A stretch of 64,000 bases of DNA from Clostridia bacterium (lineage in GTDB: Bacteria; Bacillota; Clostridia; UMGS1883). A program made the translations under genes and the position numbers. Shown piece by piece: positions 11,454 to 33,628 of the stretch. The number at the start of each line of letters is the position of its first letter. Position 1 is the first letter of the stretch. A model generated the notes under the pieces. The model was given only the letters and a program-made list of their open reading frames with translations. It had not been told where the DNA came from and searched no databases. The DNA lies in NCBI GenBank assembly GCA_051866635.1, contig JBJDXJ010000038.1, forward strand, positions 64,001 through 128,000, in the 5' to 3' direction.

Positions 11454-11490
11454 ATGGAGTAGTTCCAAAATCAAGGAACTACTCCATTTT
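11454..11490 (+). terminator. Intrinsic terminator-like hairpin
   Basis: atggagtagttcc-aaaatcaa-ggaactactccat followed by ttt. Confidence 0.65.
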
Positions 11491-11585
11491 AATTGTTTAT
11501 CCACTGTTTAAAGCAATCATTGACAGCTTTAGGATATATTTTATGACGATGGTAAAATATATAAATAAGAAAGGAAGTTGTTTAA

Positions 11586-12437
11586 ATGAAGTTATTAACT
11601 AATGAGCTAATCCAAAAATTCAAAATTTACTTAACAAATGAAGAAAAAGCCCAGGCAACTATTGATAAATACTTGCGTGATATATACGCATTTATGGCTT
11701 GGCTTTGCGGCAAGGAAGTATGTAAGGAATATGTTTTGCAATATAAAAAAGAAATCTTAGAAAATTATGCTCCTGCAAGTGTGAATTCAATGCTTTCATC
11801 GCTCAATGCGTTTTTTGCTTATAATGAGTGGTATGAACTTAGAGTAAAATCCGTTAAAATTCAAAAGCAAATATTTGCAAGCAAGGACAGAGAACTTACC
11901 AAGACTGAGTATGAAAGACTATTGAATGCGGCGAAGAATAAGAAAAATGAAAGGCTGTATTACCTGATGCAGACTATTTGCAGTACGGGCTTGAGAGTTT
12001 CGGAATTAAAATTCATTACTACAGATGCGGTTCGATGTGGACAAGCAACCATTAACTGCAAAGGAAAAATGAGAATAGTTATCTTACCTAAGCAGCTTTG
12101 CAAAATGCTTACCATTTATGCAAAAGCAAACAATATAAAAAGCGGCTCCGTATTTGTAAGCAAAAACGGGAAGCCGCTTAACAGATCAAATATATGGTCC
12201 GATATGAAAAAACTCTGTGAATCTGCCGGAGTATCTGCTGAGAAAGTATTTCCTCATAATTTGAGACATCTTTTCGCAAGAACTTATTACTCTCTCCAAA
12301 AGGATGTAGTACGACTTGCTGATATTTTAGGTCATTCAAGTGTAAATACTACAAGGATTTATACTATGGAAAGCGGAGAGGTTCACAGAAAGCAAATTCA
12401 AAAATTAGGATTACTCCTGTGTAGCAATAAATTATAA
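11586..12437 (+). CDS. Tyrosine recombinase/integrase (Xer-like, probable invertase)
   Basis: Catalytic set intact: TGLRVSE (R), CKGK (K), HNLRH (HxxR), LGHSS (H), RIYT (Y). Confidence 0.95.
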   Translation: MKLLTNELIQKFKIYLTNEEKAQATIDKYLRDIYAFMAWLCGKEVCKEYVLQYKKEILENYAPASVNSMLSSLNAFFAYNEWYELRVKSVKIQKQIFASKDRELTKTEYERLLNAAKNKKNERLYYLMQTICSTGLRVSELKFITTDAVRCGQATINCKGKMRIVILPKQLCKMLTIYAKANNIKSGSVFVSKNGKPLNRSNIWSDMKKLCESAGVSAEKVFPHNLRHLFARTYYSLQKDVVRLADILGHSSVNTTRIYTMESGEVHRKQIQKLGLLLCSNKL

Positions 12438-12460
12438 CATAATTTGTATTATGTAGTGAC
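12431..12460. repeat. Recombination site 1 (Xer/dif-like): attataacataa-TTTGTA-ttatgtagtgac
   Basis: 12-6-12 layout overlapping the recombinase stop codon; the 18-bp core 12437-12454 is the exact reverse complement of 12690-12707. Confidence 0.85.
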
Positions 12461-12510
12461 ATTGTTGATGTATTCTCATTGTAGGAAGATACACAATATC
12501 AAATTTCACA

Positions 12511-12558
12511 CAAAAACAAGACCAATGATATTAGAAATTATTACATTGGTCTGTTTTT
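12511..12558. terminator. Bidirectional terminator-like hairpin inside the predicted invertible segment
   Basis: aaaaacaagaccaatg ... cattggtctgttttt (one bulge), with A and T runs at the ends. Confidence 0.5.
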
Positions 12559-12622
12559 CGTTGCCTCTTTTTGTTTGAATATCTGAAAAAGATATAAAAT
12601 TATGTAAATTAACTGCAAATTA

Positions 12623-12651
12623 TTGACTTTTATATATTCACATGCTATAAT
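12623..12651 (+). promoter_or_regulatory. Sigma-A promoter within the predicted invertible segment
   Basis: TTGACT-17 bp-TATAAT with TGn extended -10 (catgcTATAAT), facing 12848. Confidence 0.85.
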
Positions 12652-12683
12652 GGTAGCGTATAATTAGGTTTATTGTCTGTGCT

Positions 12684-12713
12684 ATTATAACATAATACAA
12701 ATTATGTAGTGAC
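12684..12713. repeat. Recombination site 2: attataacataa-TACAAA-ttatgtagtgac
   Basis: Arms identical to site 1; spacer is the reverse complement of the site-1 spacer. Confidence 0.85.
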
Positions 12714-12847
12714 TGTCAGCAGATAAAACTATGTATATAATATTAAGAATTCAAAGGGGGTTATGCTATGGAAAGGCTTGATAGCAGTTAGTACCGTATG
12801 ACCATGAAAACTCAACAACTAAAACACTCAGAAAGGAAAATGTAAAC

Positions 12848-15800
12848 ATGAAATCTAAAAAATTTACAGCTTGGATATTGGTCATGGCAATGCTTGTTAC
12901 AATGTTACCAAGCTCGCTTGCCTTAGCGACAGGTGATCATACAACACCGGCACCATATCCGGTAATTGTGACTGATGTATTTAGTGAAATGACTAATGAT
13001 ATCAGTGGTGTGGATAAAGGTACAGATTTAGACTTGACAGGAACAACAAATGATGCACTTCCGACTGTTAATTCAGCAGTTGGAGCGGAGACTGTACTTG
13101 ATGGTGTAGATGGTACAGTATACCATAATGCAGACAGCGAAATTAACAACATGAGAAGAAAACAAATTCTCACATTCGTTGCAAAATCTCAGGATGACAG
13201 CAACTTTATTAACAGCTCTACAAGCACGGGTGTGGCTGAACATGCTGTTGAAATCGCTTATTTGGATACAGACAGAGAACCTTTGGAAATAGATTTAGAC
13301 AGTGAGGAATTTGAGGTTATTGGCAGTGGAGATTGGAGCAACGCATGGATAGATCTTTCTCAAGACGTTCAGCAGACAGACCGTACACTGGAAACATTCC
13401 TTACAAAAGAGCTTGAGGGAATCAATCCCGAACTTTTGACCGCTGCACAGCTTTTTGCAACAGGTGATATGGTATCCTTCATGATTTACAATGTTATCAG
13501 AAGCGATTTTGCCGGTTATTTAAGAATTAAGATTACAGATAACAACGGCAACACCACAGTGCAGGACTATCCTATTGTAGCAGATGGTCAGTATCCCGCT
13601 GTTTCTATCAGCACTTCAACTTACAAAAATCCCGTAGGTGAAAATGTTGAAAATAGTGCAGTAACAACTGTTGCAGAAAATACATTTATTAATGAAATGG
13701 ATTTTGTAACTGTTATGGAAGATACAGAGGAAAACAAAGAAGAAAACGAAACCGATAATATTCATAAAAGCTACAGATGGCATAATCTTGATAAAGATGC
13801 ATTACAGAATGCTTTGAATTGGGAAGACGAAAACTATAAGCCGGAAGATATTTGGGCTATGGGTGATATTTCCATAGACGAAATAAAAATTTCAGACTTA
13901 TTAGTAACTTCCGGAATTGAAAGTGTTAAGTATTCGGTTGCAAATTACGGATTAAAAGAAAATGTAACTCCATCTACATTAGAAGGAACAATTGAACTTA
14001 CATATGATCCGGCAACAAAAACTTGTTCGGCAGGAACACCTATTGTAATCAGTAATGAAGGCTTTAATGTTTTGGCAATTACAGCAGTTGACAATTCAGG
14101 ACTTAAAACAACAAACAGATACTATTTCTACATGGATACTACAGCACCCAAAGCAAAGTTTGACCTTGTAGAATTGGATAAGAACGTTGTTTCCTTATTT
14201 ACTGATGCTGATACAGTAACAAACAGACAGCAAGCTATTGATATGAGTGAATCAGATGATGTAACGGCAAGCGTTGATGTGATTTCCGGGCTTGAAGATG
14301 CAACAGCAGGCGAAACAGAAAATAATAAGATGTATCAGTATCGCTTACTTGCAACAAAAGCAGGTGCAACAGAAGGCGGAAATGTACCTGATGGTTATAC
14401 AGCAACTGTTCTCGACAAAGAAGGAAATGATTTAAGCGGTTGGAAAATTTGGACCGGCGAAACAGAAACCCCTGTTATAGATAAAGAATTTGACGGTATT
14501 GTTCAGGTACGTGTTCAGGACAGAGCAGGTAACTGGTCACCTATCGTTTCAGTAACAAGTGATGGAAAAGAAACAATTATTACAGATAACACTAACCCTG
14601 TAATTGATGTTAAGGAATATGCCCTTGACACCAATGGCGATACAATCGGCAATACAGATGCAGAAATAATTGGCGGCACTGCTACAGATATTTTAATTAC
14701 TTCAGCAAGAGTAACTGAAACAACTGACGGTGAAATTGAAAATGAGGTTATTCATACAATCACAGGTGATGTGGCACCTTGGATTAATGATTCTGCAGTA
14801 TTAGAAGTAAAGATTACTGATGAGGATCTTGCTAATGAAATTCGTTCATCAGGTCTTAAAAAAGGTCAGATTAATGTAACAGCAGAATTTAATGCCGAAA
14901 ATGAAAATAAAAAGGTTAAAATCTGGAACAAAAATGGTGTTGACAAGAAAAATGTTGATGATTCTTTCAACCTTACAGAAGACTACATTTTCGGAACAGA
15001 AACCGACAAGGATTTAACATTCTATATTGAATATGAAGGAACAGGTGTTGTTGATATCACGGTTTCTGTTAAAGACCAGGCAGATGTAAATGATGGCGAT
15101 GTTTTCTCAACAATTTATACAACTCAGCTTAGAGTTGATAAAATCAATCCTTACATTATATATAAGGGATACGATATCACAGATAAAGCCAATGAAGATT
15201 TGTTGAAAGCAAACCATGAAAAAGTTGATTACGAAGTTCGTAATATGCCTTGGGGACCGAACAGCCAGGTTCTTGAAGTTGTTGTGAAAGATGATGATAT
15301 TACTCCGATACAGTCTAAGACTAAAAATATAAGATTTAACGCTGACAAAGAATTAGACTTGTATGAATACGTTGGTGGTGTATTCACAAAGATTAAGACT
15401 TATGCCGCAGGTAATGATAATGTAGTATCACTTAGTGATTGTGAAGAACTTGCTAATGAAAAGTATGAATCCAATGTTGGTTATAAGTTCTATCTTGTAT
15501 ATGAGGGTACAGGCATTGCAAAAGTTGAATTCTTTGCAGATGATTCAGCTACAGCACCCAACGTAAGAGATTATCCTTCTATAGCAACTGCTGCTGAGGC
15601 AGAACCTGTATTATACGATGCAATGCTCCGCGTTGATAAAATTAACCCTGAAATTAAAAACGTAAAACTTGTTGAAACAGATATAGACGTTGAAGATAAA
15701 GGTTGGAGTCTCTTCTCTTTCAACGAAACAAATGTTGAAGTTAATACAAGAAAGCAGATGAAGATAACATTTGAGATTGTTGATGAAAACACAACAACAG

Positions 15801-18800
15801 AACAGTCCGGTGTTAATATTCAGAACGAAAAGATATCAGGCGTAGATTTAATTGATGTATATAAAAATTATGTAGAAAAAGATAAAACACATCTTTATGA
15901 TAATAAGCCTACAACATATACAACAGATGATGTAAATGACAAGGCAGTAGATCCTAACATTGATTATATCCTTCTTCCTGTAGAAGCGGGTTCAATTAAT
16001 GGCACAGGCGGCAATTTTGAAGAAGCTGCATCTGCATCTAATGAAGCTATTGAAGCACTCGTAGCTGAATATCTTGATAAGGTATACAATGCAGATGGTG
16101 ATAAGTGTGAATGGAAGAAAGCATCATGGAAAGATGGCGGAATTGTTGTTCCTGATGAATTCCAGGGTGCAATCGTTATCAGAACAATTGACCGTGTAGG
16201 TAATATTGATTACGCAGAAGCTATCACATTTGTTGCTGAATCAAGAGAAGCATTAATTGACTTTAATCCTCAGAACGGATATATTTGGTCTCAAAACAAT
16301 TATGGTTGGTCAAAACGTGATTACGATTATGTTGAAATTCGAGTAAAAGATGATAACGAAGACAAAGTAGATGCTTGGCTCGAAAATGTGTTTATCAGTG
16401 TGACTGACCTTGAAGGTAACGACATCTCAACAAAGGAAACAGTTAAGTTTGCTCCAAATGATCCTTCATTAAAGATTGATCCTTCTGCATATACTTATGT
16501 TTCTTTAAGTGATTTCACAAATGAAGCTGCATACGGTTATGATGTAATTGATGCATACGGTCTTGTTGAAAAACTTTATCGCGATAGCGAAGGATATATC
16601 CACCTTGGTTATGTAAGAGTAGCTGAAAGTGCTCAGATTAAGGTAACCATTTTCGATAAGGCTAAACATAACGATGTTGAATATACAGGTAATAAGACAA
16701 CAGGTATCTGGACATCAAGAATAGACAGAACAGCACCTACTGTAAATGTTAAGGTTGTTGCAATTCCGGCAAGCGAACACGGTGCTGCTGACAACAATAA
16801 GGTTGTTCTTGGTTTGAAAGCCGATATTATTGATAATGAATCCGGTGTTGCACCTTATATTACTGATGGTACTTACAATGTTTATACTCCTGAAAATGTT
16901 CCCGCATCCGGAGTATTTGCCTCTGATAAATCTTTCTTATATAAAGTAACAAATGATGCAGATGCTGAAGTTGAAAGATTTGATAGTGGAACATTCAACA
17001 CAAGACAGTATGAACTTCCCGGTTTACAGTATGCTTTGATTCCTGAAAATGGCAAATTGGAAAATGTTAAACCGTGGAATTTTGAAACTGATCCTAAAAC
17101 CGTTTATGATGAAAACGGATACAACGGAAACATGGGTGCAACATATGTATGGCATAACTATGTTGATGACAAAACACCTATCCTTCCGGAAGAAGGCTTT
17201 GATGGCTACATTGTTGTAAGAGCTATTGACAAAGCAGGCAATATCACTGTTATTGGTTGTGCTCCCACAATTGATATTGAAGCAGCAGAAGGTTGGCAGA
17301 AAGAAACACAGCTTATCCATGTTAAGGCTTCTCCCAAAACAGGAAATATTACAACTGTAGAATATATGGGTAATAACAATCTTCTTACTCATGATGAAGC
17401 GGGCAATTTGGTAACAAGAAATATTTATGCCGAGGCAATCAGTGGTGCAGGTACATTCATTGAAGTTACAGAAGAAGGTATTACAGATGTTATAATTACA
17501 GCTTCTGAAGAGTATACAGCACAGCAAACAGTTAAGGCAGCTTCCGATGAAAGAAATGCAACTTGGGAAGGCTCCATGATTGTTGGTAATGCTACACCTT
17601 CCGGATATGAAGATTTCAAATTCCAAACTGTTCAGGTGAAGATTGATAAGACAGCTCCTACGTTTGAATTTACATTAGTTGATGCAGCAAATGAAGAAAT
17701 AGTTACTTCTTCTAGAGGATTTGGAATTAAAGTAGCAGACGGTGAGGAAATTGTAGATCCTATTCCTAACTTACCTGATGTTGTCGGTTATCGTTCACAT
17801 ATTTCTTCCGGAATTGCAAAGGTTGAATATTGCGTAGCGAGTGAAGGAATGGAAGAATGGCATGAAGTTGATAAAGCAACATGGGAAACAGGTGTTATTA
17901 AAGCATATGAAGACAATGCAGCTATAACAGGTACTGTTAAAGTTCGTGTTACAGATAATGCCGGTAACGTAACTGAAAAATCCAAGTCTATCAATATTGA
18001 TAGTGCAATACCGATTATCAGCATCTCCAAGTCTTATGATTCAAAATGGAGCAATAAGCCTGTAGAAGTGAAAGTAACAGTTTCTTCAGGTGCAGAATTC
18101 TCTGACATTAGTAGCGTTTATTATACAGTAACCGGTGGAACAGAAGGTGAACTTCCTGTTACAGGCGGTACAATCACAATAGGCCAAGAAGGTGTGTATG
18201 AAGTTAGTGTAAAAGCATTAACAAAGAGCGGAAAATCTCTTGAAGCATGGACAGATGTTCATATTGACTGGACAGCACCTGATTTTGAACTTGAATTAAC
18301 GGATGGCGAGGATGTTCTTGCAGACGGTGCTAAGACAGGAAATGCAGTTACAGTAAATGTTAAGGATATTATTGACAACGTATCCGGAGTTAAGTCTATT
18401 GAATGGTGCAAGGTAGCAGAAGGCTCTGTAAATGAGCAGTGGAATAACATAACATCTGCTAAAACTGCAACAATAGAAAAAGCAGAAGCATTTACAGGAA
18501 CAGTAAAGGTTCGCGTAACAGATGAAGCAGGTAATGTTACTGTTAAGACTCAAAGAGTTATCCATAACGATGACGTGGCTATGCCTGAGTTAGTAGGTGT
18601 TGCCTCCGGTTCTTGGAAGATTGACAACGATACAGTAACAGTTGCATCTTATGCCGACGATAAAGTTAAGGTTCGTTATTCAAATAACGGAGAACCTTGG
18701 ACAGATGTAATTGAAAACTCTATCACGCTTGTTCCCGGAGCTAACCGCATCAGACTTCAGGCCTACAGAGAAGATTGCGGCTGTGAAAGTGATGTAAGAA

Positions 18801-20545
18801 CTTATGTAATTAATTACGAACCTATTGAAAATACACCTATTATTGATATTAGACATGATTACGGTAATAAGTACATGACTGTTGGCGGTTCAGATTTTGA
18901 AATTGTAAATTCTACAAATGAATCGGTAACTGTTAGCCTTGTGCCTAATAAAGGAACATGTGAAGCTGATATCCAAAGTGTAGTATACGACTTATATCTT
19001 AATGGTGTGGCTACAGAAAAAAATAAAAATATTTATCTTCCCATAACAGGTGGTACTTTAACGCTTTCTGAAGAAGGCGAATGGGCAATCGGAAATGTAA
19101 GAATAACAACAGAAAGCGGTAAAGAGTATAATCTTCTTCCTGATTATCAAGTAGTTGCTTTAATAGACAAGACTGCTCCTGTATTTGATAATGCAGAAAC
19201 AAAACTTGTTGGTATAGGCGGTGAATTGACATTATTTGGATTGGCTGAACCTACAAATGAGCAACAGAAATTAACAGCAAAAGCTAAAGATAATTGCATA
19301 ACATATAAAGGCGGAGCATCTACTGTTTTATTCTATGAATATGCATTGCTTGAAAAAGGCATGATTGAGCCTAATTGGGAACCATTGAAGTATGAATGGA
19401 ATGACACAAAAGTTGAAACCGATGCAATTATAACAACATCTTTTGAAGGAACAGTTCTTGTTAGAGTTACAGACGTAGCAGGTAACAGCTCCGTAAAATC
19501 CATTCAGGTATTTGCAGAAGGAACCAAACCTGAAATCTCAATTACAGCTCCTTCATCTTGGCAGACAGAAGATGTTATGATCAAGGTTGATGTAGTTGAT
19601 AAAGGATTATCTTCTACAATAAAGAGTGTTACATATGAATTATTAAATGGTGCTCATAAGGAAAAAGGTGAGCTTTCGTCAATAGGTGGTTCTATCGAAA
19701 TCACACGAGAAGGAATAACTAAAGTTAAAATAACTGCAGAAGATTATGCCGGAAACATTGAAACAATAGATACTTGTGAAGTAAAGATTGATAAAACTGC
19801 TCCTGAATACTCAGGCATAGTTGAGTTGCTTGGTGTTTATAATGAACACGAAATTCCCGAAAGTAAATGGAACGTTATCCATGACGGTTGGACATATAAC
19901 CATAATGTAAGCCTTGAAGGAATTGAAGATACTCATTCGGGAATTAAGAAAGTGAATATTACTTTTACAGGTGATGACGGTGCCGTAACTGAAACTACAC
20001 TTAATTCAAGTCAGACAAGTAGCAGCTTCTCTGAAAACGGCAAGTATGATCTTACTTTGATTGACAATGCAGGTAATGTTAGAAATATCAGCTTTACAAT
20101 CAATAAAGATTTACAGAATGTAATCAATGTCATTGGTATAGATGAATTCGGTAAGCTGAATATCGCAGTTACAGATGGTGATGATATGCTTACGTTCTAT
20201 AAGAAAGAAAACAGCGAAAGCAAATACACCAAGATGTATAATGGTATAACAAACCAGTTAATTGATGGTAAGACCGGCGTACGTTATATCTACGGACAGA
20301 ATGATGCAGGTAAGAAATCAAATACATTGTATGTAATTGTTGCTCCAAGTACTGAATATGGAATTTCATTAATGAGTCTTAGCTCGATACCTAACAGATA
20401 TTTGAATATTGATGCTGAAGGCGAAAAGGTTACTGTTACGAAGATTGATGAAATTTTCAATCCCGGAATCAATGAAAACATCTCCGTTGGTTCTGTTGTT
20501 GAAATCAACGAAGATGGTATATATTCAATTACAACTAATGATTAA
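12848..20545 (+). CDS. Giant secreted Ig-like repeat protein (adhesin-like), 2565 aa, no recognisable anchor
   Basis: Signal peptide MKSKKFTAWILVMAML; many DxAGN ... IDxTAP/VDKINP repeat signatures; acidic; no SLH, LPxTG or C-terminal TM segment. Confidence 0.8.
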   Translation: MKSKKFTAWILVMAMLVTMLPSSLALATGDHTTPAPYPVIVTDVFSEMTNDISGVDKGTDLDLTGTTNDALPTVNSAVGAETVLDGVDGTVYHNADSEINNMRRKQILTFVAKSQDDSNFINSSTSTGVAEHAVEIAYLDTDREPLEIDLDSEEFEVIGSGDWSNAWIDLSQDVQQTDRTLETFLTKELEGINPELLTAAQLFATGDMVSFMIYNVIRSDFAGYLRIKITDNNGNTTVQDYPIVADGQYPAVSISTSTYKNPVGENVENSAVTTVAENTFINEMDFVTVMEDTEENKEENETDNIHKSYRWHNLDKDALQNALNWEDENYKPEDIWAMGDISIDEIKISDLLVTSGIESVKYSVANYGLKENVTPSTLEGTIELTYDPATKTCSAGTPIVISNEGFNVLAITAVDNSGLKTTNRYYFYMDTTAPKAKFDLVELDKNVVSLFTDADTVTNRQQAIDMSESDDVTASVDVISGLEDATAGETENNKMYQYRLLATKAGATEGGNVPDGYTATVLDKEGNDLSGWKIWTGETETPVIDKEFDGIVQVRVQDRAGNWSPIVSVTSDGKETIITDNTNPVIDVKEYALDTNGDTIGNTDAEIIGGTATDILITSARVTETTDGEIENEVIHTITGDVAPWINDSAVLEVKITDEDLANEIRSSGLKKGQINVTAEFNAENENKKVKIWNKNGVDKKNVDDSFNLTEDYIFGTETDKDLTFYIEYEGTGVVDITVSVKDQADVNDGDVFSTIYTTQLRVDKINPYIIYKGYDITDKANEDLLKANHEKVDYEVRNMPWGPNSQVLEVVVKDDDITPIQSKTKNIRFNADKELDLYEYVGGVFTKIKTYAAGNDNVVSLSDCEELANEKYESNVGYKFYLVYEGTGIAKVEFFADDSATAPNVRDYPSIATAAEAEPVLYDAMLRVDKINPEIKNVKLVETDIDVEDKGWSLFSFNETNVEVNTRKQMKITFEIVDENTTTEQSGVNIQNEKISGVDLIDVYKNYVEKDKTHLYDNKPTTYTTDDVNDKAVDPNIDYILLPVEAGSINGTGGNFEEAASASNEAIEALVAEYLDKVYNADGDKCEWKKASWKDGGIVVPDEFQGAIVIRTIDRVGNIDYAEAITFVAESREALIDFNPQNGYIWSQNNYGWSKRDYDYVEIRVKDDNEDKVDAWLENVFISVTDLEGNDISTKETVKFAPNDPSLKIDPSAYTYVSLSDFTNEAAYGYDVIDAYGLVEKLYRDSEGYIHLGYVRVAESAQIKVTIFDKAKHNDVEYTGNKTTGIWTSRIDRTAPTVNVKVVAIPASEHGAADNNKVVLGLKADIIDNESGVAPYITDGTYNVYTPENVPASGVFASDKSFLYKVTNDADAEVERFDSGTFNTRQYELPGLQYALIPENGKLENVKPWNFETDPKTVYDENGYNGNMGATYVWHNYVDDKTPILPEEGFDGYIVVRAIDKAGNITVIGCAPTIDIEAAEGWQKETQLIHVKASPKTGNITTVEYMGNNNLLTHDEAGNLVTRNIYAEAISGAGTFIEVTEEGITDVIITASEEYTAQQTVKAASDERNATWEGSMIVGNATPSGYEDFKFQTVQVKIDKTAPTFEFTLVDAANEEIVTSSRGFGIKVADGEEIVDPIPNLPDVVGYRSHISSGIAKVEYCVASEGMEEWHEVDKATWETGVIKAYEDNAAITGTVKVRVTDNAGNVTEKSKSINIDSAIPIISISKSYDSKWSNKPVEVKVTVSSGAEFSDISSVYYTVTGGTEGELPVTGGTITIGQEGVYEVSVKALTKSGKSLEAWTDVHIDWTAPDFELELTDGEDVLADGAKTGNAVTVNVKDIIDNVSGVKSIEWCKVAEGSVNEQWNNITSAKTATIEKAEAFTGTVKVRVTDEAGNVTVKTQRVIHNDDVAMPELVGVASGSWKIDNDTVTVASYADDKVKVRYSNNGEPWTDVIENSITLVPGANRIRLQAYREDCGCESDVRTYVINYEPIENTPIIDIRHDYGNKYMTVGGSDFEIVNSTNESVTVSLVPNKGTCEADIQSVVYDLYLNGVATEKNKNIYLPITGGTLTLSEEGEWAIGNVRITTESGKEYNLLPDYQVVALIDKTAPVFDNAETKLVGIGGELTLFGLAEPTNEQQKLTAKAKDNCITYKGGASTVLFYEYALLEKGMIEPNWEPLKYEWNDTKVETDAIITTSFEGTVLVRVTDVAGNSSVKSIQVFAEGTKPEISITAPSSWQTEDVMIKVDVVDKGLSSTIKSVTYELLNGAHKEKGELSSIGGSIEITREGITKVKITAEDYAGNIETIDTCEVKIDKTAPEYSGIVELLGVYNEHEIPESKWNVIHDGWTYNHNVSLEGIEDTHSGIKKVNITFTGDDGAVTETTLNSSQTSSSFSENGKYDLTLIDNAGNVRNISFTINKDLQNVINVIGIDEFGKLNIAVTDGDDMLTFYKKENSESKYTKMYNGITNQLIDGKTGVRYIYGQNDAGKKSNTLYVIVAPSTEYGISLMSLSSIPNRYLNIDAEGEKVTVTKIDEIFNPGINENISVGSVVEINEDGIYSITTND

Positions 20546-20612
20546 TTAAACTAATTGTGCAGAGAGTAGTTTATGCTACTCTCTGCCAAAACTTAGAGAA
20601 AGGACAGATACT

Positions 20613-21965
20613 ATGAAAAAAATTATTTCTTGCATTCTTGCAGTTACAATACTGTGTTGCAGTGCTGTCGCTTTTGCTGATGAAAAAGAGGTTGTAATTG
20701 ATACTGAAGTGCCTGTATTTAAAGATTTAGTGGATGGTTCAAGCTATTCCGGAAGCAAAACAGTTGAAATTGCAGATTTAAGCCAAGTTAACTGTGTTTT
20801 AATGAAATCCGGAAAAGGAACAGTTAGTTTTGCCGGCAAAACATTTGAAGGTTATACGAAAGTTGCGGAAGAATATAATCTTGATTGTATAAACTACACT
20901 GAGGTAGCTACTGTTTCTGATGTAGGTTCGTATATGATATATGCAACAGACATCTACAATCACGATATTGCTGTAAGATTTACAATAACCAAATCAGGCG
21001 AAGGCACCGGCGGTGGCGGAGGCGGTGGTAGTGACACTACAACAGTTAAACAACCATACGCTAACGGCGATCCTGATAATGTAAAAGGAACTGTGACAGC
21101 AGGTAAAAAAATCACATTAGATACTGATACAGGAAATGCGAAGATATATTATACAACCGATGGAACGACCCCCACAAGTAAAAGCAGGCGTTATGATGCA
21201 AACATCGGCATCATTTTGAAGGAAGGTCAGATCCTGAAAGCAGTTGCGATTAAGGGCGGCATATCAAGTGAAGTCTCCGAGTGGATATGTACTTCATTCA
21301 AAAAGGGTGAATCTGTTGTTAAAGATGTGTTAGAAACAGAAGAACATATTGTTTATATGTTCGGTTATCCGGATAAAACCTTCGGACCAAACGACAATAT
21401 GACACGTGCAGAAGTAGCAACAATGTTCACAAGACTTATGAAGGATAAAATGGATAGTGATGTCGTATATGAATCTTCATTTTCAGATGTTACGCCGGAT
21501 GCATGGTATTATAACTATGTGGGATATATAGAAAAGTTCGGAATCATCACCGGTTATGAAGATGGTACGTTCAGACCTCAAAACACTATAACAAGAGCAG
21601 AATTTGTTACTATGGCAAGTCGTTTCGCAACTGTCAGCAAAGAGTTTGAGTGTGACTTTACAGATGTTACAACAGAACATTGGGCATATGATTACATTGC
21701 ATTTGCCGCCGGCAACAGTTGGATTGGTGGCTATGAGGATAACACATTCAGAGCCGATAATACAATAAGCAGAGCAGAAGTTGTAACTATTGTAAATAAT
21801 ATGCTTATCAGAAATGCTGATAAAGAATATGTGAATGCTAATAAAGCATTGCTTACATTGTTTGCTGATGTGAACGAAGAACATTGGGCTTATTATAATA
21901 TCATTGAGGCAACAAATGAACATACTTATAAAGTAAATGACAATGTGGAAAAATGGAATCAATAA
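20613..21965 (+). CDS. SLH-anchored protein: Ig-like module, Gly linker, Fn3-associated/chitobiase-type domain, 3x SLH
   Basis: Signal peptide; IYYTTDGTTP; GYPDKTFGP..TRAEVA, GYEDGTFRP..TRAEF, GYEDNTF..SRAEVV. Confidence 0.88.
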   Translation: MKKIISCILAVTILCCSAVAFADEKEVVIDTEVPVFKDLVDGSSYSGSKTVEIADLSQVNCVLMKSGKGTVSFAGKTFEGYTKVAEEYNLDCINYTEVATVSDVGSYMIYATDIYNHDIAVRFTITKSGEGTGGGGGGGSDTTTVKQPYANGDPDNVKGTVTAGKKITLDTDTGNAKIYYTTDGTTPTSKSRRYDANIGIILKEGQILKAVAIKGGISSEVSEWICTSFKKGESVVKDVLETEEHIVYMFGYPDKTFGPNDNMTRAEVATMFTRLMKDKMDSDVVYESSFSDVTPDAWYYNYVGYIEKFGIITGYEDGTFRPQNTITRAEFVTMASRFATVSKEFECDFTDVTTEHWAYDYIAFAAGNSWIGGYEDNTFRADNTISRAEVVTIVNNMLIRNADKEYVNANKALLTLFADVNEEHWAYYNIIEATNEHTYKVNDNVEKWNQ

Positions 21966-21978
21966 GGAGGTATGGAAG

Positions 21979-23082
21979 ATGAGAAAAGTACTTTCTATAT
22001 TGATGGCTGTTATTATTATATTGACTCTTAGCAGTGTGATTGTGGTGTTCGGTTACGATGGTAATGTTTTGTATTCAGATGTAAACTCAAATCATTGGGC
22101 ATTTGAAGCTATATCTTTTGCTACGGAGAAAAAGTGGTTTAATGGATATTCCGACGGCACTTTTTGTCCCAACAATACAATTTCACGGGCAGAGGCTACA
22201 AAAGTATTGGTTTCTTTGCTTGAAAGAGACGTTAAAAAAATATCAGATACCAGTTATAGTGATGTATTCGTTACAGATTGGTATGCCCCTTATATAGAGG
22301 CGGGGAAGGATTTGTTTCTCAACGTCAAGGATGGCGGAAAATTCAAGCCAAATACTCCTATCTCTCGTGAAGAAACTGTTTATGCTTTGGTTCGTGGAAT
22401 GAAATTTAACATTTCTGTTGAATATGTGGATCAGTCAATGCTTGAAAAATTCACTGATGCCAAGGAAATAGATGATTCGATAAAGCCATATTTTACAATA
22501 GCGATGCAGAAAAAGTTAATTTCAGGATATAGCGATGGAACTGTTAAAGCAAAAGATTCGTTAACCAGAGCAGAGTTTGCAACATTGCTGTACCGAGCGT
22601 ACCGGATTAGCCAAGGAAAAGGCATTGACCAAATCGAAATGACAAATGATGAGGCAAAAAGTTACGAAGAGTCTTATGAAGACTATGAATTAACCGATTC
22701 AAGTGAAATAGCTTTTAGAAAGGCTGTTGTAACACTGGTTAATGAGATACGTAATGACTATGGTTTGAATCAGCTTTCAGAAAATCCCGATCTTGCAAAA
22801 GTAGCACAGATGAAAGCTGAAGATATGCAAAATAATGACTATTTTGACCATCAGTCTCCGACTTATGGTTCACCTTTCGATATGATGGATGAATTCGGCA
22901 TATCATATATAAGTGCCGGAGAAAACATAGCAAAAGGACAATCAACTCCCCAAGAGGTTGTAGATAGTTGGATGAACTCAATGGGACATAGAGAGAATAT
23001 TTTAGATCCTTCATATGATCAGATAGGAATTGGCTATTCGGCAGATGAAGATATTTGGGTTCAAATGTTTATAGGTCAGTAA
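21979..23082 (+). CDS. SLH (x3) + CAP/SCP domain protein
   Basis: N-terminal SLH motifs; C-terminal LVNEIR, AQMKAEDM, YFDHQSPTYGSPF, GENIA, WMNSMGHRENIL; start after aaggagg. Confidence 0.9.
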   Translation: MRKVLSILMAVIIILTLSSVIVVFGYDGNVLYSDVNSNHWAFEAISFATEKKWFNGYSDGTFCPNNTISRAEATKVLVSLLERDVKKISDTSYSDVFVTDWYAPYIEAGKDLFLNVKDGGKFKPNTPISREETVYALVRGMKFNISVEYVDQSMLEKFTDAKEIDDSIKPYFTIAMQKKLISGYSDGTVKAKDSLTRAEFATLLYRAYRISQGKGIDQIEMTNDEAKSYEESYEDYELTDSSEIAFRKAVVTLVNEIRNDYGLNQLSENPDLAKVAQMKAEDMQNNDYFDHQSPTYGSPFDMMDEFGISYISAGENIAKGQSTPQEVVDSWMNSMGHRENILDPSYDQIGIGYSADEDIWVQMFIGQ

Positions 23083-23105
23083 TTATAAAAGAAAGGGAGA
23101 TTTAT

Positions 23106-25076
23106 ATGAAGAAAATAGTAAGTTTAATAATTTGTGCGGCATTCTTATTTTCCATGACGGTAACATCCTTTGCGGCACTGTCATATGGCTCCGAATGGGA
23201 TGGATATTATCATGACGCAACAACAACGTATGCAGATGTACCTTCTTCTCATTGGGCATACAATGCAATTATGAGATCTACTGAGAAGAATTGGTTTGGT
23301 GGTTATCCCGATGGAACTTTCAGACCTGATGGTCCTATTAAAAGAGCAGAAGCTCTTAAGGTTTTTGTTGTATTTTTAGGATTAGAGCTTGAAGATGTAA
23401 CAGAAAGTACTTTTTATGATGTAGATCCTAATAAGTGGTATGCACCTTACATAGAAGCCGGAAAAGACTTGTTCCCTACACATACAACAAATCAGGGAAA
23501 GACACCATTTAATCCTGAAATGCCTGTGACAAGAGAAGATACAATCTATGCTCTTGTTAAAGCACTGGGTTACAATGTTGGTGTAAAATATGTTGATGAG
23601 TCTATATTAAATATGTTTTCAGATAAAAATAGCATTTCGGGAGATATAAGACCTTATTTTGCTATTGCACTTCAAAACGAATTAGTATCAGGATTTCCTG
23701 ATGGAACAATTCGTGCACAGGATTCTCTTACAAGGGCAGAATTTGCAACGTTGTTATATCGTGGTAGCTTTGTAGGATTTAATGATGCGTATGAAGCTAT
23801 TATAGACTCTGTAACCGTAACACCTACAACCAGCATCGAAATGACTGTCGGCGAAACAATCACATTATCGGCAAGAGCTACATACACAGATAAAACGAAC
23901 AAGCCTTATACCGAATTATCGCCCTATGATGCAAACGGCAATGGAGTTATAACATTAAAAGGAACAACTATCACAGCCGTTAAGGAAGGTACAGCAGTAA
24001 TCAAATACAATGATTCTTATTTGAAAAAAGAATCTTTGACAATAACTGTTAAGAATCCTACTGAAGGTCCAAGCTTGAAAGTTACAGATTATGACGACAT
24101 AACAAAAGAATCAACTATGGAAATCAAGGGCCGTGTTACTGACAAAAACGGTGATGTTGATTTAACCTGTAATGGCAAGGATGTTGCTGTAAAAAGCGAT
24201 GGTAGCTTTGCTGTAACAGTTTCACTTGTAATTGGTACAAATAACATTCAGTTTGTGGCTGAAAATATTTATGGTGTGGAAACAACAAAGAGCGTTACTA
24301 TTATAAGAGAAAAAGAAGAAACAACATCAACAACAGTACCCGACACAGATTCCGATGGTGACGAAAAGGAAGAAAAGGAAGAAAAAGAAGATAAAGAAGA
24401 AACTGTCTCTGCTCCAACAACGCCTTCAAGCGGAGAAGAAGGAACACCTTATTTAACCTTTGATAAGAGCACGGGAACAATTACAAAATGCGGCACAAGC
24501 GTTGCCGATATTGAAATTCCTGACAAAATCGAAGGTGTAAACGTGCACATCATAGGCGAAGGTGCTTTTGAAGGTTGTACTTATCTTGAAAGTATTACAT
24601 TCCCTTCAACTTTAAAGACCATAAAGGCATCTGCATTCAGCAGATGTACACACCTTTTAGAAGTGAAAATTCCCGAAGGAACAACAAGCATTGGTGCAAA
24701 TGCATTTGATGGATGTGTTTATCTTACAGATGCTGTCATACCCGAAGGTATTAAGAAGATTGCAGATGAATTGTTCATCGGATGTAAGAGGTTGAAAAAC
24801 ATCTCTTTACCCGAAACAGTTAAAGAAATCGGTGCAAATGCCTTTGAAGGTTGTAAGAGCTTGGAAGAGGTTGTATTGCCCGAATCTACAACTACTATAA
24901 AAGACGGCGCATTTAAAAATTGTGGCGGTCTTCAGAAAATCGTTATTCCCGACAATGTAACAACTATTGCAGATGATGCATTCGACGGATGTAACGCACT
25001 CACAATCTATGCTTCCGTTAGTTCGTATGCAATAGAATATGCAAAAGAAAACGGTATTGCTTGGGCAATTCTCTGA
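23106..25076 (+). CDS. SLH (x3) + Ig-like + BspA-type leucine-rich repeat protein
   Basis: SLH motifs; acidic linker; repeated IxxxAFxGCxxLxxIxxP units. Confidence 0.9.
   Translation: MKKIVSLIICAAFLFSMTVTSFAALSYGSEWDGYYHDATTTYADVPSSHWAYNAIMRSTEKNWFGGYPDGTFRPDGPIKRAEALKVFVVFLGLELEDVTESTFYDVDPNKWYAPYIEAGKDLFPTHTTNQGKTPFNPEMPVTREDTIYALVKALGYNVGVKYVDESILNMFSDKNSISGDIRPYFAIALQNELVSGFPDGTIRAQDSLTRAEFATLLYRGSFVGFNDAYEAIIDSVTVTPTTSIEMTVGETITLSARATYTDKTNKPYTELSPYDANGNGVITLKGTTITAVKEGTAVIKYNDSYLKKESLTITVKNPTEGPSLKVTDYDDITKESTMEIKGRVTDKNGDVDLTCNGKDVAVKSDGSFAVTVSLVIGTNNIQFVAENIYGVETTKSVTIIREKEETTSTTVPDTDSDGDEKEEKEEKEDKEETVSAPTTPSSGEEGTPYLTFDKSTGTITKCGTSVADIEIPDKIEGVNVHIIGEGAFEGCTYLESITFPSTLKTIKASAFSRCTHLLEVKIPEGTTSIGANAFDGCVYLTDAVIPEGIKKIADELFIGCKRLKNISLPETVKEIGANAFEGCKSLEEVVLPESTTTIKDGAFKNCGGLQKIVIPDNVTTIADDAFDGCNALTIYASVSSYAIEYAKENGIAWAIL
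23230..23765 (+). repeat. SLH-coding direct repeat, copy 1 (copy 2 at about 25282-25817)
   Basis: Near-identical DNA at offset 2052, including an identical run 23346-23470 = 25398-25522. Confidence 0.9.
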
Positions 25077-25145
25077 TAATATATTAACGATACGGAAAGG
25101 CGGCATACTATGCCGTCTTTCCAAAAATAGAAAGGAGTTCTTAAC

Positions 25146-27260
25146 ATGAAATGTAAAGCAAAAAAGATAGTCACATTATTGTTAAGTGTTTTTATAATCT
25201 TATCTGCAATCAATTTTAATGTATTTGCTTTGGGGTACGGTTCTGAATGGGCAGAATACGACAATTCCAAGGAACAAAAGTATGCAGATGTACCTTCTTC
25301 TCATTGGGCATATGAAGCAATTAGCAGAGCAAGCAGCAAAAATTGGTTTGGTGGTTATCCCGATGGAAATTTCAGACCTGATGGTCCTATTAAAAGGGCA
25401 GAAGCTCTTAAGGTTTTTGTTGTATTTTTAGGATTAGAGCTTGAAGATGTAACAGAAAGTACTTTTTATGATGTAGATCCTAATAAGTGGTATGCACCTT
25501 ACATAGAAGCCGGAAAAGACTTATTCCCTACACATACAACAAATCAGGGAAAAACACCATTTAATCCTGAAATGCCTGTGACAAGAGAAGATACAATTTA
25601 TGCTCTTGTTAATGCACTTGGTTATCAGGTTGGTGCAAAATATGTTGATGAGTCTGTATTAGATATGTTTACAGATAAAAATAGCATTTCAAAAGATATA
25701 AGACCTTATTTTGCTATTGCACTCGAAAATGAACTTGTGTCAGGTTTTCCGGATGGAACAATTCGTGCACAGGATTCTCTTACAAGAGCTGAATTTGCAA
25801 CACTTTTATACAGAGGATCTTTCGTAGGACATAGTGACAACTACGAGGCAAAAATATCAAATGTAACAGTTTCTCCGGAGTCACCGATAGAAATTGAAAT
25901 TGGTGAAAGTGTTACGTTGACAGCAAGAGCAACATATACAGATGGAACAAATCAGGCATATTCAAGTTTGCAGCCTTATGATGCCGAAAACAATGGTGTT
26001 ATATCCTTAAGCGGAACAACAATCACAGGAATTAAAGAAGGAACAACAACAATTAAGTATAATGATTCATATCTTAAGAAAGATAGTTTAACGGTTATTG
26101 TTAAAAAGCCGACGGATGCTCCTAAAATAAAAGTTACTGATTATCCTGATACAACTGATGAAAGCAGAGTAACCATTTCCGGTACAGTTATTGACAAAAA
26201 TGTTGCAACTGTTGATTTTACATGCAACAGTAAAGATGTATTGTTAAATGAAGATGGTAGCTTCAGCACGATTGTATCGTTAAGACCGGGTGAAAATACT
26301 ATCAAGTTCACGGCGGTAAATGAATATAGTATGTCAGCAGAGAAAACAATAGAAGTCACAAGAACAAGTGCTCCGATTATCTTTATAACAAAATACAAAA
26401 ATAGCACAGTTGCTTCTAAAACAACTGTTGAAGGTATAATTACAGACAGCGATCTTTCTACCGTAAAACTTTCCTGTAACGGTGCAGATATAAGAATAAA
26501 TGCAGATGGTAGTTTTGCAACGGAAGTTGCATTGAAAATGGGCAAAAATCCTTTTACATTTACTGCAACAAATCAATACGAAAAAACAGCACAGCAGGCA
26601 ATAGAAATAACACGGTATGAGATTATCGATGAACCTAACGATGTTCCGGATGTTCCGGATTATGAAAAAATAAAAGGTAAGGTAGAACTTGTTTTTGTAA
26701 TTGATGCAACAGGCTCTATGTGTGATGAGATAGGAAATGTTAAAACAAATATCAGTGAATTTGCGGCACATTTAGAAGAAATGGGCGTAGATCTTAAAAT
26801 GAGTGTAGTTGAATACAGGGATATTACTTGCGATGAGCCTACTAAAGTTCATAAATATGCAGGCAATACATGGCACACAAGTTCAGAAAGCTTAATAACC
26901 ACATTGGCGTCTATCGATGCTTCCGGTGGCGGAGATGCTCCTGAAAGTGTTCTTGACGGATTCGGTCATGTTTTAGACAACAGACATATGGATTGGTCAG
27001 AGGATGCATTTAAGTTTGCTGTTCTTCTTACAGATGCAAGCTATAAGACAGAAAATACATACGGTTATAGCAGTCTAGAAGAAATTGCTGATAAGCTTGC
27101 ATCAAAGAACTTGAATACATCTGTTATAACTTCAACCTCTCTTTTTAAGACCTATAATGTTTTAACCAGTAAAACAGGCGGTTTACAGGTTGATATAACA
27201 TCAGACTTTGATAAGGCTTTGTCAGATTTGGCAGATAAAATTATTGACAGATCTTTGTGA
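25146..27260 (+). CDS. SLH (x3) + Ig-like + von Willebrand A domain protein
   Basis: SLH paralogous to the upstream gene; LVFVIDATGSM (MIDAS-like), EYRD, GGGDAPES, LLTDA. Confidence 0.9.
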   Translation: MKCKAKKIVTLLLSVFIILSAINFNVFALGYGSEWAEYDNSKEQKYADVPSSHWAYEAISRASSKNWFGGYPDGNFRPDGPIKRAEALKVFVVFLGLELEDVTESTFYDVDPNKWYAPYIEAGKDLFPTHTTNQGKTPFNPEMPVTREDTIYALVNALGYQVGAKYVDESVLDMFTDKNSISKDIRPYFAIALENELVSGFPDGTIRAQDSLTRAEFATLLYRGSFVGHSDNYEAKISNVTVSPESPIEIEIGESVTLTARATYTDGTNQAYSSLQPYDAENNGVISLSGTTITGIKEGTTTIKYNDSYLKKDSLTVIVKKPTDAPKIKVTDYPDTTDESRVTISGTVIDKNVATVDFTCNSKDVLLNEDGSFSTIVSLRPGENTIKFTAVNEYSMSAEKTIEVTRTSAPIIFITKYKNSTVASKTTVEGIITDSDLSTVKLSCNGADIRINADGSFATEVALKMGKNPFTFTATNQYEKTAQQAIEITRYEIIDEPNDVPDVPDYEKIKGKVELVFVIDATGSMCDEIGNVKTNISEFAAHLEEMGVDLKMSVVEYRDITCDEPTKVHKYAGNTWHTSSESLITTLASIDASGGGDAPESVLDGFGHVLDNRHMDWSEDAFKFAVLLTDASYKTENTYGYSSLEEIADKLASKNLNTSVITSTSLFKTYNVLTSKTGGLQVDITSDFDKALSDLADKIIDRSL

Positions 27261-27308: not shown

Positions 27309-27558
27309 TAATGAGGTAATAATGAAAAATCAAGACGGGGTGCGGACATATTCTTGGACTTTAAAAGGAGTAAATAAATATGTCGCACCCCGTCTCGGCT
27401 GTTCGTTCTTTGGCTCTTTAATCGTATCTACAGAGGCTCATTGTCAAGTAAACCATGGAATAAATGAGAAAACTCAAGGATTGTTACTATTTATTCCGTA
27501 TTTTGCAGCTTTTCCTGACTGTTTTTTTGAGAGGACGCTATTTTATCACTACATTTTA

Positions 27559-27587
27559 TTGACAAATCCTGTTTTCTTCTATAGAAT
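27559..27587 (+). promoter_or_regulatory. Sigma-A promoter for the large LRR gene
   Basis: TTGACA-17 bp-TAGAAT. Confidence 0.7.
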
Positions 27588-27630
27588 AAAATACAGATAA
27601 GTATTGGAAAATTTGAAAGGATGGTGCAAT

Positions 27631-30600
27631 ATGAAAAAACTGGTTTCAATTATTCTGGTTGCCCTTATGGTTCTGTCATTTGTCCCTTCGGTTGGGGCAG
27701 CGTATGTAGCTTACAGCGGAACTTGCGGCGACAATGTCACATGGGAATTGGATGATGAAGGTGTTTTGACCATTTCAGGTATCGGTGCCATGGATGATTA
27801 TAGTTGGTCATCTTCTGACTTACGAGCTCCATGGTCAAAGTACCGTTCCGTGATTGAAAAGGTTATTATAAGAAACGGTGTAACAAGGATAGGCGAGTCA
27901 GCTTTTGACGGCGAATCCTATAGCTATTTGACGGAAGTAACAATCCCTGACAGTGTAAAAAGTATAGGTAATTATGGATTCTATGCTTGCTCTTTTATTA
28001 GTGATGTTTACTATGAAGGTACAGAAGATGAATGGAAAGATATTTCTGTTTATTCGGGAAATACAACACTGAAAAAAGCAAATATTCATTATAACTCATC
28101 AATGGAGGTAGGCGGTAAATGCGGTGAAGAAGCTTATTGGAAGTTTTTTGACGGTGTGCTGACAATCTACGGCAAAGGTGTAATGGATGACTACACCTCA
28201 ATACAGGAAACATCCTGGTACAGTTATGTAAGTGAAATTAAAAAGGTTGTTATCGAAAACGGTATTACAACAGTAGGTGCATATGCATTTTCAGCGTTAA
28301 CACAGCTTAAGGAAATTGATTTTGGTAATACAGTTGAATACATAAAAGATTGTGCCTTTTACAAATGTACAAAGCTTGAAGAGTTGAATTTACCCCAAAG
28401 TTTAAAAGATATTAAAAAAGGTGGCTTTGGCTATTGCATTTTGTTAAAGGAAGTTACACTTCCTGAAAATGTTGTTGCATTGGGCGCGGCTTCCTTCGGC
28501 AACTGTATAGCTTTGGAAAAGGTAATACTTTCAGAACGTATTTTTGCTATGGGAACAGGTGCCTTTGCATATTGTAAATCACTTAAAGAAGTTGTAATCC
28601 CTGCAGAGATGACAGTACTGTCTAAAAATTTATTCGCAGGATGCACAAGTTTGGAATATGTATATATACATAGTGGTATTGAAACTATTTCCGAAGGTGT
28701 TTTTTACGGATGTAAAAATCTTAAAGAGGTGACAATACCTAAAAGTGTAACATCTATTGAGGTAGACTCCTTTTATAACTGTAAAGCCGTTTTAAGTGTT
28801 GTGAAGGGTTCCTATGCCGAAACTTATGCAAAAGAACAGGGCATGAACTATGTATATTTTGTTGGTACACTTCTTTCCATCCAAGTTATAGGTGATGATG
28901 GAGAAGAGTTGAAGGATGGATATACTGTTAATTGGTATGTTCAGGGTACTGACAATGCGGTAGGTCAAGGACCGGAAATCTCGGTGGAAGATACAACAAA
29001 AACCTACGAATGTAAGATTGACTTTGACGAGGATTTAGCTTTAACATATTACCGCTTAAATGAAAGAATAACCGTAGAGTCAACTGATAGAAAGGTCTGG
29101 TTAAAAGCCATTCCTACGGTAGCTTTGGAAGGTGTTGTAACCGATATTGACGGCGAACCTTTGGACGGTGTTTCAGTCCGGGTTGAACAAGACTTCAGCA
29201 TGGGCGTTGAAAAGACAGAAAGTGCGGCTACAGGAAATGATGGATTGTACAGCAAGGACGTAAAGCTTGTACCTACACGTGTCACGTTTTCAAAGGACGG
29301 ATATTATTCAAAAACTATCAACGTAATAGATTATGACAACATATTTGACAGAGAAGCAGGTTCAGAAGTTGTTCTTGACAAATTGCCTGACAGTAAAATA
29401 AAAATGTCCTATGTGGTTAATTCCCTTAAAGAAGACGGAGAGGATATAGAGCAGTTTATATATAATGATATAGCATATTTTGATTATCTATTATATAACA
29501 ACACTGAGGATTGTGAAATTACTGAGTATTCATACGAGCATCCCTATTTTGTAATAGATTCGGGCGTTGCAAAAGAAGGTGATGAAATCACCCTTTCAAT
29601 TACAGATGCACAAAATATTGTAACAGCAGATGATATCACATTTGTGTTGGGTGAAGCAGGCAGTGCGGAAGTTACGGCAGAACTTTTGTATAACGGATGT
29701 TTCAAGGCAGATGTTTTCTCGGAGAATGAAACAATTGTTATTGTTTTTGATAAGACAGGTGAATTTATAAAGACTTATTTTGTACAAGGCACCAAATTTA
29801 AGTCCTCCAATTTGCCCGAAGGTGATTATACAGCAGTATTTTTGAAAAAGACACAGTATTTTTCAAAGGTAGAGTCTTTGGGAAAACTTAGTGAAATCGG
29901 TCTTAAAGAAACTGACTATGTTTTGAAAAATGTAACAGTTGAAAAGGGGAAAATAAATGCGTTAGGTGATGTTAATGTTCCCGATTTTGACGAAGAGCTG
30001 CTATATTGCACCGAATATGCAAGTGTGGTAAATAACAGCTATCAGGCCGTAACAGGTCAGCTTATACAGATTGATGCAAAATACAAGGTTAAAGACGGCT
30101 ATGAAACAGGTGGTGAAAAACTTGTATTTGAACTGCCTGAAAATATAAGCCTTGTTTCAAAGAGCGTGGTTGTAAATTCCCAAGTGGCAAATTATGAAAC
30201 ACAGGGAAATAAAGTTACGGTTTATACTAACACAAATGAAGCAAAGGTACGTTTTTATGTGACAAGTAATGTTTCGGGAGAATATGCAATAACTGGCTAT
30301 ATTGACTGCAAGACAGACCAAAACAACATTATTAAGCCCATAGGCACATGTACCCTTAATGTTACAAATGCCGATATCAGTGTGCCAGAACGCACAAACA
30401 AAAGCAGCGTTACTGTCAGTGGTGTAGCCATGGCAGACAGCACTGTAACAGTGTATGACAACTATAAAAAGGTTGGAACAACAACGACAAACGGTAATGG
30501 TAACTGGAGTTTGACATTCAATCTTCCTAACGGTGACTATTCATACTACTACCACACTATTTACGCAACTATTACAAATCCAAAGTATGCAGGCTGTGTT

Positions 30601-33555: not shown

Positions 33556-33592
33556 AAAACTGGCTGTAGCAAAATAACAGCTCAAAAAAAAG

Positions 33593-33628
33593 AAAAAAGA
33601 AGTTCCCAAAATCGGGAACTTCTTTTTT
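33593..33628. terminator. Bidirectional terminator-like hairpin
   Basis: aaaaaagaagttccc-aaaatc-gggaacttctttttt. Confidence 0.7.

Follow-up and report, generated by a model that had tools for sequence, protein, structure and literature searches.

A predicted recombinase-linked promoter switch ahead of a surface-protein operon in an uncultured Clostridia bacterium, and the family to which it belongs

Does the short region between a tyrosine recombinase gene and a long array of surface-protein genes act as an invertible promoter? The question is raised by a stretch of 64,000 nucleotides (nt) from a Clostridia bacterium (contig JBJDXJ010000038.1 of assembly GCA_051866635.1), hereafter the window, which corresponds to C38:64001-128000 of a 2.33-Mb, 39% GC assembly of 63 contigs (G000). 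An earlier note on this DNA had proposed a self-contained, recombinase-linked promoter switch assembled in the ON state, that is, with the promoter facing the surface genes. Our analysis supports an invertible promoter, assembled ON and predicted to face the surface-protein operon, and the locus is very probably a self-contained phase-variation cassette. The evidence is that the segment is flipped in L011 and L012, the two closest relatives among the matches listed; that a reverse-complement site pair recurs in 124 of 160 related loci, a recurrence beside homologous recombinases that the note had suggested checking; and that the genome itself carries four inverted pairs of this kind.

The two sites were described in the note as exact inverted repeats with 18-bp cores, 253 bp apart, each with an asymmetric 6-bp spacer and resembling Xer/dif sites, and the description holds in full. 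The 18-nt cores of sites 1 and 2 are 100% reverse complementary, the site blocks start 253 nt apart, and each core consists of palindromic 6-nt arms around a non-palindromic 6-nt spacer (TTTGTA or TACAAA). The layout is 10-6-10, with two inverted arms and a 6-nt spacer, and the family consensus common to all four half-sites is tACCACATAA. Because the spacers are reverse complements of each other, the sites would align antiparallel, and strand exchange in such a synapse would invert the 235-nt segment rather than delete it. The 30-nt blocks are direct repeats except for the inverted spacer, which is the expected leftover of one crossover between sites with different outer arms. Flipping the window segment would give each site perfectly palindromic 12-nt arms. 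In L011 and L012, which carry the flipped form, the site 1 arms are palindromic over 11 of 12 nt, and the site 2 palindrome is shorter (9 nt).

Relatives were collected in two ways. Species-representative genomes were searched with an alignment of the four recombinase paralogues of this genome, which confirmed at least 479 relatives among at least 598 candidate stretches, and a protein-seeded search of a metagenome set confirmed 141 of 260. The best 80 genome loci, all from metagenome-assembled genomes (MAGs) of gut or rumen Clostridia, and 80 metagenome loci were analysed. With at most one mismatch per arm, a reverse-complement site pair was found in 69 of the 80 genome loci and 55 of the 80 metagenome loci. 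At the genome loci the paired sites lie 189-406 nt apart; relative to the gene end, the pair starts at -4 to +38 nt, except for one at +165. Eight of the 11 pairless genome loci are contigs ending at most 252 nt after the gene, and 17 of the pairless metagenome contigs also end too early. Over both sets, 147 pairs are reverse complementary, none is direct and 19 are of other types; in a scan of the whole loci, 148 pairs came up, and their 52 distinct spacers included no palindrome. Constant arms, with a spacer that is free yet always compensated, are what inversion by a tyrosine recombinase would require. Beyond the switch, a co-oriented open reading frame (ORF) begins 1-672 nt after site 2 in all 61 assessable loci. 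These first ORFs represent 58 families in all, led by TetR_N (17 of 61), double zinc ribbon (7) and SPFH/Band_7_1 (6), with SLH, dockerin and cohesin at three loci each. Of 301 genomes of the class that were sampled, 72 have a homologue of the recombinase at E <= 1e-50, as do 48 of 177 genera, with up to 8 matches per genome.

Inversion itself can be read from comparisons between related loci. The recombinases of L011 and L012 are 90% and 87% identical to that of the window, and both loci have the same spacer, TTTGTA. The window segment can be aligned along its full length with L011 (82.6%) and L012 (84.3% over 191 nt) on the minus strand, with both flanks on the plus strand. Four near-identical locus pairs show the same succession of plus flank, minus segment and plus flank, and differ only by inversion of the segment. 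Identities of the upstream flank, the inverted segment and the downstream flank are 99.0%, 100% over 267 nt and 93.3% for L155 and L146; 97.4%, 98.5% and 92.9% for L112 and L109; 99.4%, 95.7% and 99.0% for L143 and L145; and 97.3%, 99.7% over 301 nt and 98.5% for L062 and L066. Moreover, one of five paralogous cassettes in genome G007 is inverted relative to three others. As read from these assemblies, both orientations of the switch occur in nature. The assembled orientation was OFF in 57 of 73 switches (16 ON) and in 44 of 55 metagenome switches (11 ON), giving 101 OFF and 27 ON. A contig end falls in the 450 nt downstream of the gene at 13 of 80 genome loci, versus 2 of 80 upstream, and at 22 versus 13 of 80 metagenome loci; this excess of contig ends in the switch fits mixed orientations breaking the assemblies. 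For the window switch, the exact 24-nt sequence of fixed flank and site 1 had no match in a scan of the metagenome contigs, and the protein-seeded metagenome search returned no relative above 77% identity, so it offered no same-species comparison.

The same cassette occurs elsewhere in this genome. Besides the window copy, three recombinase paralogues, 74, 61 and 49% identical to it, lie on contigs C31, C49 and C35. The 2.33 Mb contain 10 exact ACATAA-N6-TTATGT sites, and eight of these form four pairs directly after the four paralogous recombinases, 0-20 nt after the gene and 210-314 nt apart. Each pair has its own mutually reverse-complementary spacer (TTTGTA, TTGTGA, TCTACA and TGTGTC), and each of the four segments contains a promoter and a hairpin. 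The promoter faces the cargo (ON) in the window and the recombinase (OFF) on C31, C49 and C35. The cargos of these other three cassettes are a C39-peptidase ABC exporter, a 1739-aa (amino acid) Ig-like protein and a DUF6625 protein. As in this genome (4 of 4), spacers are unique to each cassette in G213 and G239 (3 of 3 found in each).

Some variants of the arrangement were also recorded. In G007 (L174-L178) the arms of the five paralogous cassettes, which share 80-92% identity, are degenerate, e.g., CCACGTAA and TTCCGTGG; common spacers in this genome could permit recombination between cassettes. About ten relatives (L051, L053, L054, L056, L065, L077, L078, L079, L087 and L088) have a third site copy downstream of the recombinase, which is oriented directly with respect to site 1 or site 2 and stands 29-41 nt away from it, and such arrangements would be the expected product of nested inversions among three sites. 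Two complete cassettes stand in tandem at G213:C18:2828-6090 (L183 and L184), the first switch facing the second recombinase gene, which could be a hierarchical switch arrangement. The OFF switch on C31 of our genome (G000:C31:34796 onward, L008) leads to a short ORF and then to the exporter gene, and would make this a phase-variable bacteriocin-type export locus. Furthermore, a different tyrosine recombinase, a weakly similar 390-aa frame, was found about 47 kb past the window (G000:C38:175687-175950, L007).

The protein encoded beside the switch is, as judged by profiles and motifs, an Xer-like tyrosine recombinase. It contains a Pfam Phage_integrase domain (8.1e-30) and an N-terminal SAM-like domain, and residues R137, K161, H224, R227, H250 and Y259 align with the catalytic motifs of XerD (1a0p). 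All six residues of this R-K-H-R-H-Y set are unchanged across the four paralogues of the genome. The reading frame is intact and ends inside site 1, as the note had stated, with the stop codon (12435-12437) within the 30-nt block. The top NCBIfam scores all fall below the cut-offs (XerA, 141.3 vs 220; XerD, 131.1 vs 329.6; XerC, 109.6 vs 335), and the FimB/FimE-type models score low (PRK09870, 37.5 vs 221; PRK09871, 27.5 vs 222). The nearest solved structures are those of XerA, an XerC-like protein and XerD. A ribosome-binding site (RBS), AAAGGAAG, read by eye, precedes the ATG, and the preceding GH88 gene has a terminator at 11454-11487. No promoter of the recombinase gene could be assigned with confidence.

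Within the segment, two overlapping promoters are predicted, each matching the consensus at 11 of 12 positions. Promoter 1 (TTGACT-17-TGcTATAAT, with a TG extension, 12623-12651 on the plus strand) is the extended -10 promoter that the note had placed between the sites and facing the surface genes. Promoter 2 (TTCACA-16-TATAAT) lies at 12637-12664. Both -10 boxes and the -35 box are retained in L011 and L012. The extended -10 promoter lies about 38 nt from one end of the segment and the hairpin about 65 nt from the other. A near-consensus promoter stands at the same relative position in 73 of 73 switches and is also present in 55 metagenome switches. L011 and L012 retain the hairpin of the window (RNA fold -15.7 kcal/mol, z -3.1), which is probably a bidirectional terminator or an insulator against read-through from the recombinase gene. 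In the family, a hairpin was found in 88 of 126 switches, 58 of which have the GACCAAT stem, with compensatory variants; the GACCAAT-hairpin motif occurs five times in this genome, three times within switches. Beyond the segment, identity to L012 reaches 91% over the region that runs from site 2 to the start codon of the cargo (12684-12860), exceeding that of the coding flanks.

This leader contains a mini-ORF of seven codons (MERLDSS, 12768-12791) with a strong RBS, which is conserved in L012 via swapped synonymous Ser codons; this may be a leader peptide or a regulatory RNA. An Rfam search of the leader and the segment gave no family match and two sub-threshold hits only, and a riboswitch or other known RNA was therefore rejected.

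Table 1. Features of the predicted switch and its cargo, in window coordinates.
Feature	Position	Strand	Basis
Upstream leader of recombinase gene	11503-11585	+	blastn high-scoring segment pairs with L011 and L012 begin at 11503
Xer-like tyrosine recombinase gene, 283 aa, intact, outside the invertible segment	11586-12437	+	ORF and Pfam
Recombination site 1; core 12437-12454 (ACATAA-TTTGTA-TTATGT), spacer 12443-12448; overlaps recombinase stop	12431-12460		Repeat and motif search
Invertible segment, 235 nt, ON in this assembly	12455-12689		Minus-strand alignment to L011 and L012 segments, flanks plus
Conserved hairpin, stem AGACCAATG / CATTGGTCT, A-tract before, T-tract after	12510-12561	+	Inverted repeat and RNA fold
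Two overlapping predicted sigma-70-type promoters facing cargo	12623-12664	+	Consensus matches, 11/12 each
Recombination site 2; core 12690-12707 (ACATAA-TACAAA-TTATGT), spacer 12696-12701	12684-12713		Repeat and motif search
Fixed 5' leader of cargo operon	12708-12847	+	Identity to L012 (see text)
First cargo gene, 2565-aa secreted giant protein, signal-peptide-like N-terminus	12848-20545	+	ORF; weak Ig-like Pfam hits only
Four SLH-domain cell-wall-anchored proteins, 450, 381, 673 and 704 aa	20613-27260	+	ORFs and Pfam
92-aa ORF and 1983-aa BspA-LRR/Ig-like surface protein gene	27322-33555 (27322-27600; 27604-33555)	+	Co-oriented ORFs
Strong palindromic terminator, 17 pairs, likely unit end	33592-33629		Terminator search

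In the mechanism that we propose, the recombinase would bind both sites. In the ON orientation, the hairpin would stop transcripts coming from the recombinase gene, and the promoter would read through site 2 and the 140-nt leader into the giant-protein gene and the four SLH genes, probably continuing across two further genes as far as the terminator at 33592. In the OFF orientation, the inverted promoter would read backward into the recombinase gene from its 3' end, and the hairpin would still block read-through into the operon, since it is a palindrome flanked on either side by A/T tracts. Antisense transcription in this state may lower expression of the recombinase, which may explain the OFF excess in the assemblies. 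The spacer would serve as each cassette's own recombination address.

A further-reaching reading, which we hold only tentatively and consider doubtful, is that the whole family is a modular addressable system, with half-sites common to all cassettes, private 6-nt spacers, OFF-biased rates set by antisense transcription, and a GACCAAT hairpin that has an architectural or regulatory role in synapsis. It builds on the fact that the recombinase gene reads into the switch, so that a flipped promoter would make antisense RNA against that gene. If this were true, several cassettes (four here) could flip independently without scrambling the chromosome, and the hairpin, in the middle of the segment, could be what lets sites as close as about 250 bp come together in synapsis, rather than a mere terminator. 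Given the diversity of the cargo (TetR regulators, bacteriocin exporters, giant adhesins), the cassette would then be a general portable promoter-delivery module of gut Clostridia.

Could the sites have nothing to do with gene control? An inverted repeat might stand beside a recombinase gene by chance in AT-rich intergenic DNA, and the motif count in the window alone is indeed not beyond chance: ACATAA-N6-TTATGT was found twice against 0.49 expected, and 9 of 100 shuffles of the window reach two matches. The significance of the pair comes instead from the exact complementarity of the cores, the genome-wide pairing pattern and the conservation in relatives. An architecture that is kept at 124 of 160 related loci and recurs with 52 different compensating spacers makes coincidence scarcely credible, and the pairs across the genome, the pairs in relatives and the observed inversions together refute it. 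The sites might also be chromosomal dif-type sites or attachment sites of a mobile element, serving dimer resolution or integration and excision. This would suit the dif-like core motif, already remarked on in the note, and a recombinase that scores best on the XerA, XerD and XerC profiles. The scores are, however, far below the equivalog cut-offs (141 vs 220; 131 vs 329.6), the inverted pairs about 250 nt apart enclose nothing more than a promoter and a hairpin, and this genome has four such pairs, with up to 8 recombinase homologues per genome elsewhere. In addition, reverse-complement spacers lead to inversion and not excision, and both orientations are observed. We therefore regard a dif or attachment function as very improbable.

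Another possibility is that this copy is locked, having inverted in the past with no useful flip rate now, so that the operon is in effect constitutively on. Its outer half-site positions (ATA and ACT) do deviate from the family consensus ACC, which also counts among the points against an active phase-variation cassette. Nevertheless, the recombinase is intact with all catalytic residues present, the cores are perfect 18-nt reverse complements, and L011 and L012 have the same atypical outer positions yet the opposite orientation, indicating that such arms have supported inversion since the species diverged. A locked copy is unlikely on these grounds. Other observations weigh against the cassette reading or narrow it. 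Three of the 72 assessable genome loci (L050, L058 and L085) lack a second site, and eight more distant metagenome loci with at least 349 nt of downstream sequence fail the arm criterion. Four recently duplicated cassettes in G007 have a common spacer, TATACA, and the rule of one unique spacer per cassette in every genome was rejected for this reason; L019 and L032, from one MAG, also have the same spacer (TTCTCA). A promoter-like site outside the segment (12713-12741, 10/12) could allow orientation-independent expression; as a fixed second promoter it is weakened by an altered final -10 base in L012, and we keep it as a caveat only. A T-tract follows the hairpin (ON form) in only 41 of 88 switches and is found on neither side in 38 of 88, so a terminator role is not general across the family, and the general statement that every member has a canonical intrinsic terminator in its hairpin was rejected. 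The promoter, terminator and antisense effects are predictions from consensus, and the ON state of the window is that of the assembly consensus only.

How does the cassette compare with known switches? The E. coli fimS switch with FimB and FimE is similar in having an invertible promoter of about 300 bp, an adjacent recombinase reading toward the switch, a surface operon beyond it and an OFF bias. Four features by which a fimS-type inverton is recognised were found at our locus and its relatives, namely the catalytic set, an inverted site pair, an internal outward promoter (predicted) and both orientations among relatives. The differences are that the recombinase here falls outside the FimB/FimE family, with PRK09870 at 37.5 vs 221, that the window sites are of the 10-6-10 Xer type whereas fimS has 9-bp repeats with flanking half-sites, and that here each switch comes with a single recombinase and a genome holds several cassettes. 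In Clostridioides difficile, RecV is one recombinase acting in trans on several switches (cwpV, flagellar), and the cwpV switch works by terminator formation downstream of a fixed promoter. RecV likewise is a tyrosine recombinase of Clostridia, and the short segments that it inverts lie ahead of genes for cell-wall or surface proteins. In contrast, every switch here is paired with a recombinase of its own in cis, and its promoter is part of the invertible segment. The Xer/dif system provides the best sequence relatives (XerA, XerD and XerH structures 5hxy, 1a0p and 5jjv) and the same site layout of two inverted arms with a 6-nt spacer. The recombinase nevertheless scores under the equivalog cut-offs, the sites of the window family are paired, inverted and multi-copy (four pairs) rather than a single dif per replicon, and the role here would be promoter inversion and not dimer resolution.

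A description that resembles this family is already in print. The hCom2 gut-community survey (Microbiome 2025, PMC11892184) lists an 'inverton group 139', in which 32 of 33 invertons come from Clostridia. No other group in that survey has so strong a link to neighbouring tyrosine recombinases ('invertase group 35'), and nearly all members have a tyrosine-type recombinase nearby (PMC11892184). In two examples from this group the inverted-repeat starts lie 231 and 241 nt apart, and the orientation ratios shifted during passaging (PMC11892184). The likeness lies in the host class, the tyrosine recombinase, which is adjacent at all of our loci, and the short inverton (253 nt in the window, 189-406 nt in the family). 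The difference is that the text of PMC11892184 available to us gives no half-site or spacer anatomy, hairpin or promoter position, and its main text prints no motif. The window family is probably inverton group 139 with invertase group 35, a match by description and not by motif. The earlier note had not recognised the combination of a dif-like switch and an SLH operon as a described system, and in this respect it needs revision: the family is very common in Clostridia (72 of 301 genomes) and probably coincides with these groups. The text of the DeepInverton paper (PMC11602134), as far as it was available, holds no Clostridia motif or recombinase link. Among titles and abstracts, our literature search turned up no paper printing an ACATAA / TTATGT site together with bacterial inversion, the hits being lox, primer and unrelated contexts; beyond PMC11892184 it turned up no other description of the window family and no site anatomy. 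In print, the family seems to have only a catalogue entry.

If the switch operates as proposed, phase variation in this uncultured Clostridia bacterium of gut or rumen would extend over some 14.5 to 21 kb of surface-protein genes, including those for the giant secreted protein, the four SLH-anchored proteins and possibly the 1983-aa LRR protein. A phase-variable surface would bear on interactions with phages, on immune interactions and on adhesion. The reading of MAGs would also be affected, since assemblies break at such switches. Within the class, roughly one sampled genome in four carries cassettes, often several, placed before regulators, exporters and adhesins. Moreover, a 10-6-10 site with a free-choice spacer and a 283-aa recombinase could serve as a compact, possibly orthogonal, inversion tool.

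The extent of the cargo probably differs somewhat from what had been thought. The note had given an operon of about 14.5 kb with five co-oriented surface-protein genes (12848-27260). These five genes exist, and four of them encode SLH proteins, which additionally carry CHB_HEX_C, CAP, BspA-type LRR and VWA domains (Pfam); the co-oriented array, however, continues to 33555. Since the co-orientation continues and no terminator-like site was found between 27260 and 33592, the terminator at 33592-33629 being the sole strong one, the transcription unit probably runs to 33555 and not 27260. A promoter-like site at 27559-27587 could drive the last gene independently. The first cargo gene of L012 is an orthologue of the giant-protein gene of the window, the two products sharing 58% identity along 1232 residues. 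Divergence from L012 is far greater in the initial ~500 residues of the giant protein (window 12848-14350) than in the remainder, parts of which are more than 90% identical, and this divergent N-terminal part would fit a surface-exposed variable region.

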